A stretch of DNA of 64,000 bases, from the NCBI GenBank assembly GCA_021163155.1, contig JAGGXI010000038.1, positions 7,731 to 71,730 of the forward strand. The letters run 5' to 3'. Origin of the DNA: Candidatus Aerophobota bacterium. GTDB lineage: Bacteria; Aerophobota; Aerophobia; Aerophobales; JAGGXI01. The notes under the pieces are model-generated. The model worked only from the letters and a program-made list of their open reading frames with translations. It was not told the origin of the DNA and ran no database searches. Below are positions 9,786 through 56,150 of the stretch, piece by piece. Within the stretch, counting starts at the first letter, position 1. Each line of letters begins with the position of its first letter. Position numbers and translations under genes: made by a program.

Positions 9786-10817
9786 ATGGATCTTCTAAAA
9801 CAATTGAGTGAGGCTTCAGGAATCCCCGGACATGAAGAAGGGATTCGTAAAATTATCACCGAGACACTGAGAGGCTATGTAGACACAGTTGAGGTGGATC
9901 GTTTGGGAAATTTGATCGCCCATCGCAAAGGTGAAGGACCAACGGTGGCAATCGCTGCCCACATGGACGAGATTGGTTTCATTGTCAGCTTTATTGAAAA
10001 GGATTCTGGCTTCCTACGAATCCATCCCCTTGGCGGTTTTGATGTTAAGACACTAATTGCCCAAAGGGTGATCGTGCACACCGAGAAGGGAGATCTGATT
10101 GGATGCATTGGAAGCAAACCAGTGCATATCATGACCGATGAGGAACGTAAAAAGCCACCCGAGATGAAAGACCTGTTCATTGACCTTGGCTTACCTGAAA
10201 ATAGAGTGAAGGATTCTGTCAATATTGGAGACACAATTACTCTCCGCCAGGAGTTCCTTACCTATGAGAATGTTGTCTCTGGAAAGGCACTTGACGACCG
10301 TTCCGGCTTATATATTGGGATTGAGGCGATCAAGCAGGCTAAAAATACCGCTTGTAATCTTTACTTTTTGGGAACAACACAGGAGGAGGTTGGGTTGCGT
10401 GGGGCACGGGTGGCTGGGTTTGCAGTAAAGCCGCAGATTGGGATCGCACTTGATGCAACAATTGCTGCTGACATGCCTGGTGTCCCTGGCCCACAACAGA
10501 TAACAAAATTTGGGAAGGGTGTTGCAATCAAGTTGACTGATTCCTCCTCCATCTCTCATCCTGGATTAGTGCGAGCAATGCGCAAACTCGCTGATGAACG
10601 GAATATCCCCTATCAGATGGAAATCCTTCCTCATGGAGGTACCGACGCTGGGACACTGCAGATGGCTCAAGAAGGGGCAGCCGTGGTCACCCTTTCTCTT
10701 CCCACTCGATATGTCCACTCGGTAGTGGAGATGGCGCATACATCTGACCTTAAGGCGGCGATTGACCTGCTTGCAGCCTTCATCGAGACAGCAGATAAGT
10801 TAGATCTCACGCTCTGA
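9786..10817 (+). CDS. M42 family aminopeptidase (glutamyl aminopeptidase/FrvX-like)
   Basis: 'AHMDEIGF' and 'LDDRSG' motifs are present in a 343-aa product. This gene is clearly more GC-rich (about 50%) than its neighbours (about 35%). Confidence 0.8.
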   Translation: MDLLKQLSEASGIPGHEEGIRKIITETLRGYVDTVEVDRLGNLIAHRKGEGPTVAIAAHMDEIGFIVSFIEKDSGFLRIHPLGGFDVKTLIAQRVIVHTEKGDLIGCIGSKPVHIMTDEERKKPPEMKDLFIDLGLPENRVKDSVNIGDTITLRQEFLTYENVVSGKALDDRSGLYIGIEAIKQAKNTACNLYFLGTTQEEVGLRGARVAGFAVKPQIGIALDATIAADMPGVPGPQQITKFGKGVAIKLTDSSSISHPGLVRAMRKLADERNIPYQMEILPHGGTDAGTLQMAQEGAAVVTLSLPTRYVHSVVEMAHTSDLKAAIDLLAAFIETADKLDLTL

Positions 10818-52756: not shown

Positions 52757-53782
52757 TCAAATTATGAGCATTGCATCTCCGAAGGAGAGGAAACGATATT
52801 TTTCCTTTATTGCTTCCTTGTAAGCGGCAAGCAATTTTTCCTTACCCACAAAAGCAGATACTAATAGAATAAGTGAGGTCCCTGGCATATGAAAGTTGGT
52901 AATAAGGGAATCCACTATCTTAAATCTATATCCCGGATAAATGAACAGCTTTGTCCATCCCTCTCCCTCCTCAATTAAACCAGTAGATTTAGCCTGTGTT
53001 TCCAGAGCTCGAGTAGCACTGGTTCCTACAGTTACCACTCTTCTCGCTTCCCTAATAATCTTAGCTGCTTTAGCCTCAATTTTATAAAATTCCTCTGGAA
53101 TTTGATTCTCTTCCACTATTTCTTTATTTAAACGCTTAAAGCTGGCCCATCCGGTATGCAATGTCACCTCTACTATTTTCACCCCTTTATCTTTTATTTT
53201 TTGCAATAAAGAAGGGGTAAAATGGAGTCCTGCTGTGGGAGCAGCAATGGCTCCTCCCTCTTTAGCATAAACAGTTTGATATCTTTCTCTATCTTCGGGG
53301 CTGGGGCATCCTTCCCTTTTGATATAAGGAGGAAGAGGAACCTGACCAATCTTCGCTATAACTCTATTTAATTTGCTTGGAGGAGTAAATTTAACTACTG
53401 CCTTTGCTCCTTCACCCTTCTTTAATATATATGCTTTAAGTTCTGTCTCCGGGAAAAAAATTGAACTATCTTCTCTTATGCTCTTAGCCGGTTTCAGTAA
53501 ACATTCCCAAATATCTTCCTCTTTTTTCTTTAAAAGAAGAACTTCAGCTTTGCCTCCCGTAGTTTCTTTTTTTCCTTTCAATCGAGCAGGTATCACATAT
53601 GTATTGTTTAATACCAATACATCCCCTTCCTGGAAATAATGCAGAATCTCATAAAATCTTTTATGCTCTATTTCCCCCTTTTCTCTGTGAAGCACCAAAA
53701 GACGAGACTCATCCCTTTGGGGAGCTGGATATTGAGCAATTAATTCTCCTGGAAGCTGATAATAAAAATCTTTTAACCTCAA
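52757..53782 (-). CDS. queA: S-adenosylmethionine:tRNA ribosyltransferase-isomerase
   Basis: 'LPPYI' and 'TVGTSATR' motifs are present in a 341-aa product. Confidence 0.9.
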   Translation of the reverse strand: MRLKDFYYQLPGELIAQYPAPQRDESRLLVLHREKGEIEHKRFYEILHYFQEGDVLVLNNTYVIPARLKGKKETTGGKAEVLLLKKKEEDIWECLLKPAKSIREDSSIFFPETELKAYILKKGEGAKAVVKFTPPSKLNRVIAKIGQVPLPPYIKREGCPSPEDRERYQTVYAKEGGAIAAPTAGLHFTPSLLQKIKDKGVKIVEVTLHTGWASFKRLNKEIVEENQIPEEFYKIEAKAAKIIREARRVVTVGTSATRALETQAKSTGLIEEGEGWTKLFIYPGYRFKIVDSLITNFHMPGTSLILLVSAFVGKEKLLAAYKEAIKEKYRFLSFGDAMLII

Positions 53783-53948
53783 CTGATTTTCCTTTATTCT
53801 TTTCTTTTAAAATTACCAATAATTACTCATTGGTCAAGAAGATTTCTAGCTTTCCCCTCCATCGCTGTCCATTACGAGTAAATGGGTAAATGAGTTAATT
53901 GGACAAACTTTGTACTATTTTTTGTAGTTTCTTTACTTTTTCCTCATA

Positions 53949-53975
53949 TGGGTCAGGTCTTCAAACTTGACATAA
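53949..53975 (+). repeat. GGGTCAGGTCTTCAAACTTGACATAAA motif (left boundary of the accessory island) with an adjacent hairpin
   Basis: A direct copy lies at 56600. It is followed by the inverted repeat gtcttcaaacttgacataaat...atttatgtcgaagac. Confidence 0.65.
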
Positions 53976-54114
53976 ATATTAATTTATGGTAATGATAATT
54001 TATGTCGAAGACCATTAAGAATTTCCCATCCAGGCGCCCTTTATCATATCAGTACAAAGCATAAGGAATACAGTAGCCGCGGCAGACATCGACGTCACAA
54101 GAATTCCATCAAAA

Positions 54115-54714
54115 TTGGAAGCGCGAAGTGGACTTGGAAGCCGCGCTGAAGTTATACCAGCCATAGATAAACTTTTTGGCGAGTTATACAAAGACGCTCA
54201 AGAAAACGCACTTTGCATAATTGCGGAATGTTTAATAGCAGAAAGCCCACAATTGGCCGAAAGCGTACAAGAAATTCTTGGAAAAGACGGTTATCAATTC
54301 ATTGATGGTTCATTTGTTCCTGTTGGTTTACTAGATCAAAGAGAGGCCAAGTTCTTGCCTATAAGCTCAGCCACCGAGATTGCTAGAGCTACCTCTCGAT
54401 TAATTAATGGTGATTACAGCGGCGCAATAACATCAGCATGTGGTGCCGTCGATATCGTAATGCAGTAAATCTATAAAGAGCAAGGCCTGGGCGAAGCAGG
54501 TAAAGCCTCCTTTCAGGCTAAAGTGAATACTGCTGCTAAGCAATTACGCCTATTTGAAGCAATGGAAAGCGAATTTCGGAAAGTAGGCATGCCTGAAAAG
54601 GATACATCGGAATTAGTAAAGGAAATGAAAAGTGCCACTAACCATGCAGCACAGGCGTTACAAGTCTTGAGGCGTGCTATGGGAGACACCCATGGCATCT
54701 CTAAGATACAATAG
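54115..54714 (+). pseudogene. GC-rich ORF of unknown function interrupted by an in-frame TAA (54466-54468); the C-terminal segment carries a HEPN-like 'RAMGDTHG' (Rx5H) motif
   Basis: ORFs 54115..54468 and 54523..54714 are in the same frame and separated only by the stop. The frame is also open upstream to 54019 with no start codon there. Confidence 0.4.
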
Positions 54715-54958
54715 CCAGGGATTCTCTAATTCTTCTTTAGTCACAAAACGCCATTTACCGCTATCTTCCAAAACTTTTGTATTCTCATCCAGCAAAGAGT
54801 ATAGAACGATAGTCCTAAAAACACTTCCCAGTCTTCTTACCCACCATTTGTGAATAAAGTAAATCGGCGGTATTTTTCCTTGGCGTGGGCTTCCCGTTCC
54901 GCAATTTCGTTAACCTGTTCAATAGGGAAATCTATTTTTATAGGTCTTTGTTTCACTT

Positions 54959-55351
54959 TTATTCCTCTATTGCCTTTGCGACAATTTCATCTATAACTTT
55001 AATGAATTCCTCAGCTTTCTCAAGCCAGGTCTTGATATCTTCCTTGTTGAATTCAACAAAGTCTTCATAATCTCCCCTTTGCCTGAATTCAAACATTTTA
55101 TTGTAAAAATCTCCGAATTTTTCCCCAACAACACCTGCCTTTACAAATTCTCTATTAAATAAGCTCCTTATTCCACTGTGTTTTGAAGAATAAAGATCCT
55201 TTGTTAGAAGAAGTGCAACAGATTCATAAAAGATGGCATAATATATTCTGTTGACAGTGGCAAACAGTTTTGAATTATCAAACATTATCTTTGCTTCTTC
55301 AAAGGTCTCTTTGGCTCTCTCCCTCCTGTAGTTGATAATTTTCTCTTTCAT
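54959..55351 (-). CDS. HEPN-domain protein (toxin component of a HEPN/MNT pair)
   Basis: The 130-aa product has an 'RQRGDYEDF' Rx4-6-type motif region. Its start overlaps the MNT gene stop by 4 bp. Confidence 0.75.
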   Translation of the reverse strand: MKEKIINYRRERAKETFEEAKIMFDNSKLFATVNRIYYAIFYESVALLLTKDLYSSKHSGIRSLFNREFVKAGVVGEKFGDFYNKMFEFRQRGDYEDFVEFNKEDIKTWLEKAEEFIKVIDEIVAKAIEE

Positions 55352-55695
55352 TTAACAGGCACTCCTTCTTTGTCAATATTCCAGTGAATGGGCATAGCTT
55401 TTGCCAATGGTGATTTCCAGAAGTTGGTAGCTTCTATAAGGATTCCAAATACGACATTGTACTTTAACTCTATTCTGAAGCTCATACTGAAAATCTTTTC
55501 TCTTAAACTGTCATTGACATCACATTCAAGTAGAATTAATACATCAATATCCGATTCCTCATCAAAATCTCCTCTTACCTTAGAACCGTAAAGAATGACC
55601 CCAGCATCTGGGAATCTTTCCAGCACTCTTTTTTTTAACTCCTGTAAAGCTTTTTTCTCATTTTCTTTTAATTTCAACTCTTCTACATTCTTCAT
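55348..55695 (-). CDS. minimal nucleotidyltransferase (MNT, pol-beta superfamily; antitoxin/AMPylase component)
   Basis: 'YGSKVRGDFDEESDIDVLIL' matches the GSx9-13Dx[DE] motif. Confidence 0.85.
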   Translation of the reverse strand: MKNVEELKLKENEKKALQELKKRVLERFPDAGVILYGSKVRGDFDEESDIDVLILLECDVNDSLREKIFSMSFRIELKYNVVFGILIEATNFWKSPLAKAMPIHWNIDKEGVPVK

Positions 55696-56150
55696 TTTCT
55701 TACCTCAATCATCGGAACAAAGCATTCCATCAAACTTAATCCACCATGAAAATATATACTGTATTTTCCCGGTACAGGCCATATATATCGGGATTTCACA
55801 AGATAATAACCAGAAAAATCTACAACATAACCATCTTGCACCAGATGAGAAGCATCTGCTTGATTCATAGAGATGTATCTATTGCTGCCAAAAACATCCC
55901 TTAAAGCTCTCTTCTTGTTATCCGGAACTGGGAAAGCAAATCCAGCTTCTGAACGAATATACCCATGGTCAGATAGAATTATAATCTTGCTGGTTTTAAG
56001 TTTAGTTGCCAATTCCATCACGATTTTTTCTGTAGTTTCATGCATATTCTCAAGAGATGAGATTACAGTATGCCCTACCTGAATTTTGTCCAGCAAACAA
56101 TCCGGAAAATAAGACCAGATATATTTTTCCCTACCCGTAATCCTTATCAT
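55692..56150 (-). CDS. short alkaline-phosphatase-superfamily protein resembling the C-terminal part of a PglZ domain
   Basis: 'ILSDHGY' and the C-terminal 'HGGLSLMECFVPMIEV' fit the PglZ family. The protein is only 152 aa, bounded by a stop immediately upstream. Its start overlaps the MNT gene by 4 bp. Confidence 0.4.
   Translation of the reverse strand: MIRITGREKYIWSYFPDCLLDKIQVGHTVISSLENMHETTEKIVMELATKLKTSKIIILSDHGYIRSEAGFAFPVPDNKKRALRDVFGSNRYISMNQADASHLVQDGYVVDFSGYYLVKSRYIWPVPGKYSIYFHGGLSLMECFVPMIEVRK

Follow-up and report, generated by a model that had tools for sequence, protein, structure and literature searches.

HEPN proteins carry a motif defined as Rx4-6H, and AbiJ is a HEPN family that combines this motif with variable N-terminal domains (Anantharaman et al. 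2013, PMC3710099). Proteins of the AbiJ/Abi_C type (PF14355) are about 270 aa long; their N-terminal domain varies, and the helical domain at the C-terminus contains the conserved Arg...His pair (Rx4-6H). They occur as solitary genes in defense or mobile islands, at times beside restriction-modification (R-M) or ParB/DUF262 genes. The locus described here lies in a 64-kb stretch of DNA (the window, meaning the whole stretch that was analyzed) and contains part of a gene whose parent family is similar to these proteins in the above respects; Abi_C and AbiJ were the only recurrent profile matches of this family, and the fold search returned HEPN structures. Unlike the described proteins, the parent family scores under the curated cut-offs, its N-terminal domain matches no model, and the conserved Arg is followed by Arg/Ala, where N/D/H is typical. 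The copy in the window differs further in being an internal fragment, very probably dead, that is without the last HEPN helix. With a probability of roughly 0.93, we regard 54047-54695 as a non-functional pseudogene relic of a horizontally acquired AbiJ-like HEPN gene, truncated at both ends and interrupted by a TAA codon; we infer that the relic has no present function.

Translation of 54019-54717 on the plus strand gave a single frame that begins directly after a TAA (54016-54018), contains one internal stop, the TAA at 54466-54468, and ends with a TAG (54712-54714). The translation agrees with a preliminary description of this DNA, according to which the two ORFs called in this region share one frame and are split only by the TAA, and the frame is open upstream to 54019 without a start codon. 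There is no in-frame ATG before 54460 in the frame starting at 54019. The open frame itself was correct; its upstream extension and its tail are unrelated junction sequence. The frame is far beyond a chance ORF, with 304 database proteins matched and a best E-value of 8.5e-123.

The GC enrichment that had been estimated as about 45% against about 34% is present, although the measured values are 43.8% for 54019-54714 and 35.7% for the window. The core (54047-54695) has 43.9% GC, and only 1.8% of the 649-bp windows across the 64 kb are as GC-rich. This composition and the different gene contexts in which the closest relatives are found are both signs of a foreign origin.

In a blastn search, 54047-54695 matched four metagenomic contigs without gaps over 649 bp (L003, L002, L001, and L004, with 96.6, 96.5, 96.5, and 95.5% identity, respectively). 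The counterparts of the fragment in these contigs are intact genes encoding 278-280 aa, and the matching block falls within their interior. The best protein matches to the conceptual translation were two proteins from these contigs, P0001 (280 aa, 94% identity, E = 8.5e-123) and P0002 (278 aa, 89% identity), the latter encoded at 6263-7099 of L004. Both are colinear with the window copy and align to it without gaps. Unlike the window copy, they are complete, start with ATG, have CAA in place of the TAA, and lie next to GmrSD_N and DUF5677 genes. Relatives with an intact frame, which the preliminary description had proposed looking for, exist. A tblastn search of the window detected neither of the two neighbor genes, nor a second copy of the fragment. 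Each homologue is one single protein; the lengths range between 237 and 304 aa (median 268 aa, 120 matches listed of 304).

In P0001 numbering, the block corresponds to residues 37 to 251/252 of about 280, so that of a parent gene of about 840 bp the 649-bp middle part is left in the window. Similarity to L001, L003, and L004 breaks off sharply at 54047; the 3' limit at 54695 lies just past His251-Gly252. The lost N-terminus comprises 36 residues with the start codon and a helix (H19-33) that contains nearly invariant columns (L25, Y26, and A28-N34). Beyond His251-Gly252, the intact homologues run on as 'SKPAFRHTAY..IKWAS.IC.L' for about 28 residues (S253 onward), including a last helix (H258-274) whose columns are likewise nearly invariant. 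Both helices were placed with an AF2 model of P0001 (pLDDT 87). The mean column conservation is 0.80 for the missing N-terminus and 0.87 for the missing C-terminus, compared to 0.75 for the retained part. When residues 36-252 of P0001 were searched against the window with tblastn, only 54047-54695 matched, and tblastn found no trace of the missing termini anywhere in the window. Amputated at both ends, the gene would be dead even without the TAA. A functional gene is expected to have a start codon, an uninterrupted frame, and full length relative to its homologues; 54019-54714 has none of these. The features of the region are collected in Table 1.

Table 1. Features at and next to the AbiJ/Abi_C-like fragment (positions in the window)
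Feature	Position	Strand	Remarks
Internal fragment of an AbiJ/Abi_C-like HEPN gene, very probably a pseudogene relic of foreign origin	54047..54695	+	Ungapped 649-bp blastn matches, flanks unrelated
Unrelated lead-in, in frame by chance, outside the gene	54019..54046 (28 bases)	+	Similarity starts only at 54047
Unrelated read-out 'ISKIQ' followed by TAG, past the 3' breakpoint	54696..54714	+	Similarity ends at 54695
Nonsense codon TAA, Gln176 CAA to TAA (C to T)	54466..54468	+	CAA in L001, L003, and L004
R-x6-H-G motif (RRAMGDTHG), catalytic-type, of the HEPN-like domain	54670..54696	+	At the very end of the fragment
ORF, TTG start, 117 aa	54115..54468	+	Same frame as ORF 54523-54714
ORF, GTG start, 63 aa	54523..54714	+	Same frame as ORF 54115-54468
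DUF1156-type DNA methylase remnant, N-terminal, frameshifted and truncated	54715..54956	-	Its broken end joins the Abi fragment at the 3' breakpoint
HEPN-MNT toxin-antitoxin pair, intact (HEPN 54959-55351, nucleotidyltransferase 55348-55695)	54959..55695	-	Neighbor, outside the pseudogene
152-aa ORF, C-terminal fifth of a BREX-type PglZ phosphatase	55692..56150	-	PADLOC PglZ, E = 1.1e-9

The outgroup sequences L018 and L019 also encode Gln at position 176. With CAA in the close relatives and Gln in the outgroups, the TAA is a derived C-to-T change on the branch leading to the window copy. Across the 120 homologues listed, column 176 is always a sense codon (A, Q, D, or E) and never a stop. Apart from the nonsense codon, the window copy has eight derived amino-acid changes; G49D and H116D affect columns that are invariant across the 120 homologues listed, and M72I affects a column that is Met in 118 of them. 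On the window branch as a whole there are 12 changes (9 non-synonymous, 3 synonymous; omega about 0.9), of which 9 run from GC to AT; this substitution pattern fits unconstrained drift toward the low GC content of the host. The P0001 lineage (L001 and L003) has an omega of about 0.07 and is under strong purifying selection. The P0002 lineage (L004) is intact, with about 12 non-synonymous and 3 synonymous changes, among them V38A and A47R at nearly invariant positions; its omega of about 1.2 may reflect diversifying or relaxed selection. Because an intact lineage also reaches this value, dN/dS alone is no proof of decay, and we dropped it as a decisive test for a pseudogene. The suggestion that this is a nonsense-inactivated Abi gene was thus borne out as regards a single gene with a derived TAA; the TAA is not the sole damage, since the ends of the gene are lost as well.

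All assemblies of the strain have gene calls for the 117-aa and 63-aa ORFs, and these ORFs, or one of them, could be real small genes kept for a new role, for example as a decoy, as a regulator, or as an inhibitor that acts on the adjacent HEPN toxin or on a related Abi protein. In general, a domain fragment of a toxin can be a dominant-negative partner. We nevertheless consider small genes, which the preliminary description had also put forward, quite improbable. Their starts are non-ATG codons, and a Shine-Dalgarno sequence is absent at both candidates (TTG at 54115 and GTG at 54523); purine-rich Shine-Dalgarno sequences are present for most real genes nearby, among them queA, tgt, yajC, the HEPN gene, the MNT gene, and the PALP gene. 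The 117-aa ORF begins within helix 3 of the N-terminal domain. No database family has the extents of the 117-aa or the 63-aa ORF; the short matches in the profile search are a mix of extents, and the homologues are single proteins of the lengths given above. The neutral-like substitution, with radical changes at invariant sites, also argues against retained small proteins. We infer that both ORFs are artifacts of ORF calling.

A related idea is that the fragment is not inert. One of its two ORFs, or an RNA from it, might be expressed and modulate a HEPN toxin, which could be that of the adjacent HEPN-MNT pair or an intact paralogue encoded elsewhere in the genome. The fragment might instead be a silent donor cassette that recombines with an intact Abi gene. 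Apart from the fragment, the parent family in its intact form may be an uncharacterized anti-phage system. We judge this set of proposals to be very improbable.

Support for the TAA in other assemblies, which the preliminary description had proposed checking, was found in seven other contigs (L005-L011), all of which hold the exact 30-mer around the codon. These copies were retrieved through exact matches to the neighboring HEPN and QueA proteins, with Logan SRR14000035/36 among the sources. Five contigs span the complete 1176-bp intergenic stretch (53783-54958) at 100% identity (one from JGI 3300017593, three from JGI 3300016457, and ENA ERZ23499514); the remaining two (ERZ23499535 and SRR14000035) cover part of it and agree. 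At least four other samples have contigs in which the TAA and the whole 1176-bp stretch are unchanged. Since the TAA and both junctions are base-identical across contigs, an assembly error is not the explanation. As all copies are 100% identical, they demonstrate that the allele is real; they are uninformative on selection.

These contigs also bear on the idea that assembly or binning chimerically joined a foreign Abi piece to this contig and that the TAA is a sequencing error. Such an artifact would agree with the foreign-looking GC content, with the homology of about 96% to genes of other metagenomes, and with the observation that several short contigs of the strain terminate within or close to the segment. 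However, both junctions and the TAA recur base for base in the spanning contigs from the two JGI data sets and from ERZ23499514, and the 22-29 differences from every intact copy found show that none of these copies was mis-joined here. We hold an artifact to be highly unlikely.

TAA is the stop codon of 17 of the 44 long ORFs found in the window; ppiD, the HEPN gene, and the HTH gene are among these 17. The genetic code is therefore standard. The reading in which an otherwise complete Abi gene was inactivated by the nonsense codon only, or in which the TAA is suppressed or read through as a switch to yield an active HEPN protein of about 230 aa (programmed readthrough was named as a possibility in the preliminary description), is hardly credible, because, although a single frame with one stop retains the R-x6-H-G motif and the TAA is reproducible in the seven other contigs, the product would still be without 36 N-terminal and about 28 C-terminal highly conserved residues (the last HEPN helix included), a start codon is absent upstream of the homology, the invariant G49 and H116 are mutated, none of the 120 homologues listed has a stop in this column, and in this window TAA ends ordinary genes.

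Under the favored reading, a relic truncated at both ends, the gene would have entered a variable defense island between queA and the PLP-enzyme gene by horizontal transfer. A 5' deletion would have taken away the conserved first helix together with the start codon; a 3' deletion would have taken away the last HEPN helix and fused the stump to that of a DUF1156 methylase. The C-to-T mutation turned the CAA of Gln176 into TAA, and further substitutions, mostly from GC to AT and mostly amino-acid-changing, accumulated by drift. In the interval 53700-55000, neither terminal repeats nor IS ends nor target duplications mark the breakpoints, and the counts of promoters and terminators in this interval are within the expectation from shuffled sequences. 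A scan of genome and metagenome contigs with QueA (185,579 species-representative genomes and 241 million metagenome records) found no empty or intact site in relatives; the best QueA relatives (Firmicutes, Omnitrophota, and others) are 50-53% identical. With no close relative of this kind, the order of events and the origin of the breakpoints through deletion are our reconstruction. The host lineage is poorly sampled, yet identical contigs recur in a handful of samples.

The assignment to the HEPN superfamily began with the 'LRRAMGDTHG' stretch, in which the preliminary description had recognized an Rx4-6H arrangement. The stretch is present, with R244/R245 encoded at 54670-54675 and H251 at 54691-54693. 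R244, G248, H251, and G252 are invariant in the 120 homologues listed, so that R244...H251 forms R-x6-H; R245 is nearly invariant and gives R-x5-H with the same histidine. In distant members of the family, the H and G are invariant and the R is at least 90% conserved. The window copy thus has the conserved Rx4-6H motif of HEPN proteins; the helical bundle is incomplete, since the helix after the motif (H258-274) is absent.

In Pfam searches, the Abi_C model (PF14355) matched the fragment with 13.8 bits, the 63-aa ORF with 16.7, and P0001 with 17.0, all under the gathering threshold of 24 bits; the weak match covers the R-x6-H-G stretch. Abi_C was the only recurrent Pfam match, with E <= 0.01 in 22 of 120 close members (best 2.2e-4) and E <= 0.001 in 2 of 48 distant ones. 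Abi_C is also listed for many members in precomputed tables that are based on a newer version of the model; the entry for P0029 is unmarked (E <= 1e-5). The PADLOC AbiJ profile (PDLC02347) had a weak match to P0001 (residues 149-254 against profile positions 156-249 of 281, E = 0.017, 12.9 bits) and none to the fragment or to P0029. Apart from this weak AbiJ match, no PADLOC, NCBIfam, or PHROGs family was found for the fragment or its intact homologues. The N-terminal domain of the family matched neither a described AbiJ-NTD nor any other Pfam, NCBIfam, PHROG, or PADLOC model.

For the structural comparisons, we used the AF2 model of P0001 and that of a C-terminal-domain member (pLDDT 95.6). 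When the whole-protein model was searched against the PDB with Foldseek, the HEPN protein 2hsb stood out (probability 0.87, TM 0.63, E > 0.8). For the C-terminal domain, the top PDB matches were the HEPN proteins 2q00 (probability 0.84), 1ufb, 1o3u, 4nqf, 3o10, and 1wol, with TM values of 0.5-0.59 and E > 0.8. The whole-protein search returned nothing at E <= 0.001 from the PDB or BFVD, and in BFVD nothing was outstanding by probability either. A search of the family profile against the sequences of solved structures gave nothing meaningful (best match a geranyl diphosphate synthase, E = 0.95). These lines of evidence are consistent with one another, each of them below its threshold, and with moderate to good confidence we regard the parent family as AbiJ-like HEPN proteins whose helical N-terminal domain is undescribed. 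The intact ancestor was most likely a single-protein abortive-infection or toxin-type RNase. In such a protein, the N-terminal domain would sense or regulate, and the HEPN domain would cleave RNA, with the metal-independent RNase activity expected of the HEPN superfamily.

A profile search against 1.84 billion cluster representatives returned 301 clusters at E <= 0.001, and additional N-terminal regions are present in part of these clusters. The parent family is an unannotated, mobile family of about 300 clusters at 50% identity. In its closest relatives (L001-L004 and L019), the Abi_C-like gene is preceded by a GmrSD_N/DUF262 gene and followed by a DUF5677 gene. The Abi_C-like gene lies 4 bp downstream of the GmrSD_N gene, which encodes 592 aa and matches PADLOC PDC-M55C with E = 1.6e-41. 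The DUF5677 proteins of L001 and L019 have no similarity detectable by blastp. In L004, a SMODS and SLATT_4 pair is next to the Abi_C-like gene. This cluster may be an uncharacterized multi-gene defense cassette. Distant members are solitary, amid TA genes, transposases, and R-M genes (for example in Nitrococcus mobilis and other large contigs); others were located on plasmids of Burkholderia, Cupriavidus, Ralstonia, and Pseudomonas that are conjugative or mobilizable, with the annotation 'hypothetical protein'. We rejected an obligatory two-gene system of GmrSD_N and Abi_C, since in more distant members the gene stands alone.

The 3' breakpoint of the fragment is joined tail-to-tail to another stump. 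Two minus-strand frames joined by one frameshift read 'MKQRPIKIDFPIEQVNEIAEREAHAKEKYRR/PIYFIHKWWVRRLGSVFR...' here; after repair of the frameshift, the resulting 82 aa matched Pfam DUF1156 with 28.1 bits (cut-off 24, E = 2.2e-6), and the match crosses the frameshift. There were also weak matches to PADLOC HmaB methylases. The remnant covers the first approximately 80 residues and the PADLOC methylase profiles have about 970 positions; it is therefore a stump as well. It begins 3 bp past the stop codon of the HEPN gene. Gene callers cut this stump into meaningless small ORFs.

The HEPN-MNT pair beyond it had significant matches to Pfam HEPN (E = 1.1e-18) and NTP_transf_2 (E = 1.2e-12), and its two genes overlap by 4 bp. 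The preliminary description had placed the fragment convergent to this toxin-antitoxin operon, which agrees with their orientations (fragment on the plus strand, pair on the minus strand). The pair and the fragment share the same island and, in the broad sense, the HEPN superfamily. In contrast to the fragment, the pair is intact, lies on the opposite strand, has a nucleotidyltransferase partner, and belongs to another HEPN family (PF05168); the two have no sequence relationship.

The 152-aa ORF matched positions 590-725 of 855 in the PADLOC PglZ profile and positions 574-725 of 844 in the NCBIfam profile for BREX-1 PglZ type A (22.8 bits, cut-off 270). It overlaps the start of the MNT antitoxin gene by 4 bp (ATGA) and has no Shine-Dalgarno sequence. 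The ORF probably represents a further gene remnant of this island; alternatively, it could conceivably be a small PglZ-C domain protein that was kept and is co-transcribed with the HEPN-MNT pair. An XRE-type HTH gene lies beyond it. The region from queA (53782) to the PLP-enzyme gene (56603) looks like a defense island in decay, as marked between queA and the HTH gene by the Abi, DUF1156, and PglZ stumps, in a poorly sampled lineage of low GC content.

For annotation, a single entry, labeled as a pseudogene fragment, should replace the separate 117-aa and 63-aa ORFs. Although real, the feature is ordinary, very probably debris of a defense-type gene. Its 96% nucleotide identity to intact donors, the neutral-like drift from GC to AT, and two apparent deletion scars would make the locus a clean case of decay after a recent horizontal transfer. 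The fragment also points to an unannotated AbiJ-like HEPN family that is a candidate for anti-phage activity.

Two further observations concern other parts of the window. An AT-rich imperfect palindrome at 53969-54006 (GACATAAATATTAATT / AATGATAATTTATGTC, with 16-nt arms and a 6-nt spacer) is situated immediately to the left of the 5' breakpoint, within the spacer upstream of queA. Both strands carry promoter-like hexamers that overlap the palindrome, which may be an operator or promoter element. Rfam had no matches in the whole window. The most GC-rich stretch of the window is found at 9786-10817 on the plus strand (up to 49.8%, compared to 35.7%) and contains a 343-aa ORF. Its translation looks like an M42-type aminopeptidase, and the flanking ORFs resemble components of a peptide transporter; this ORF is possibly another horizontally acquired gene.
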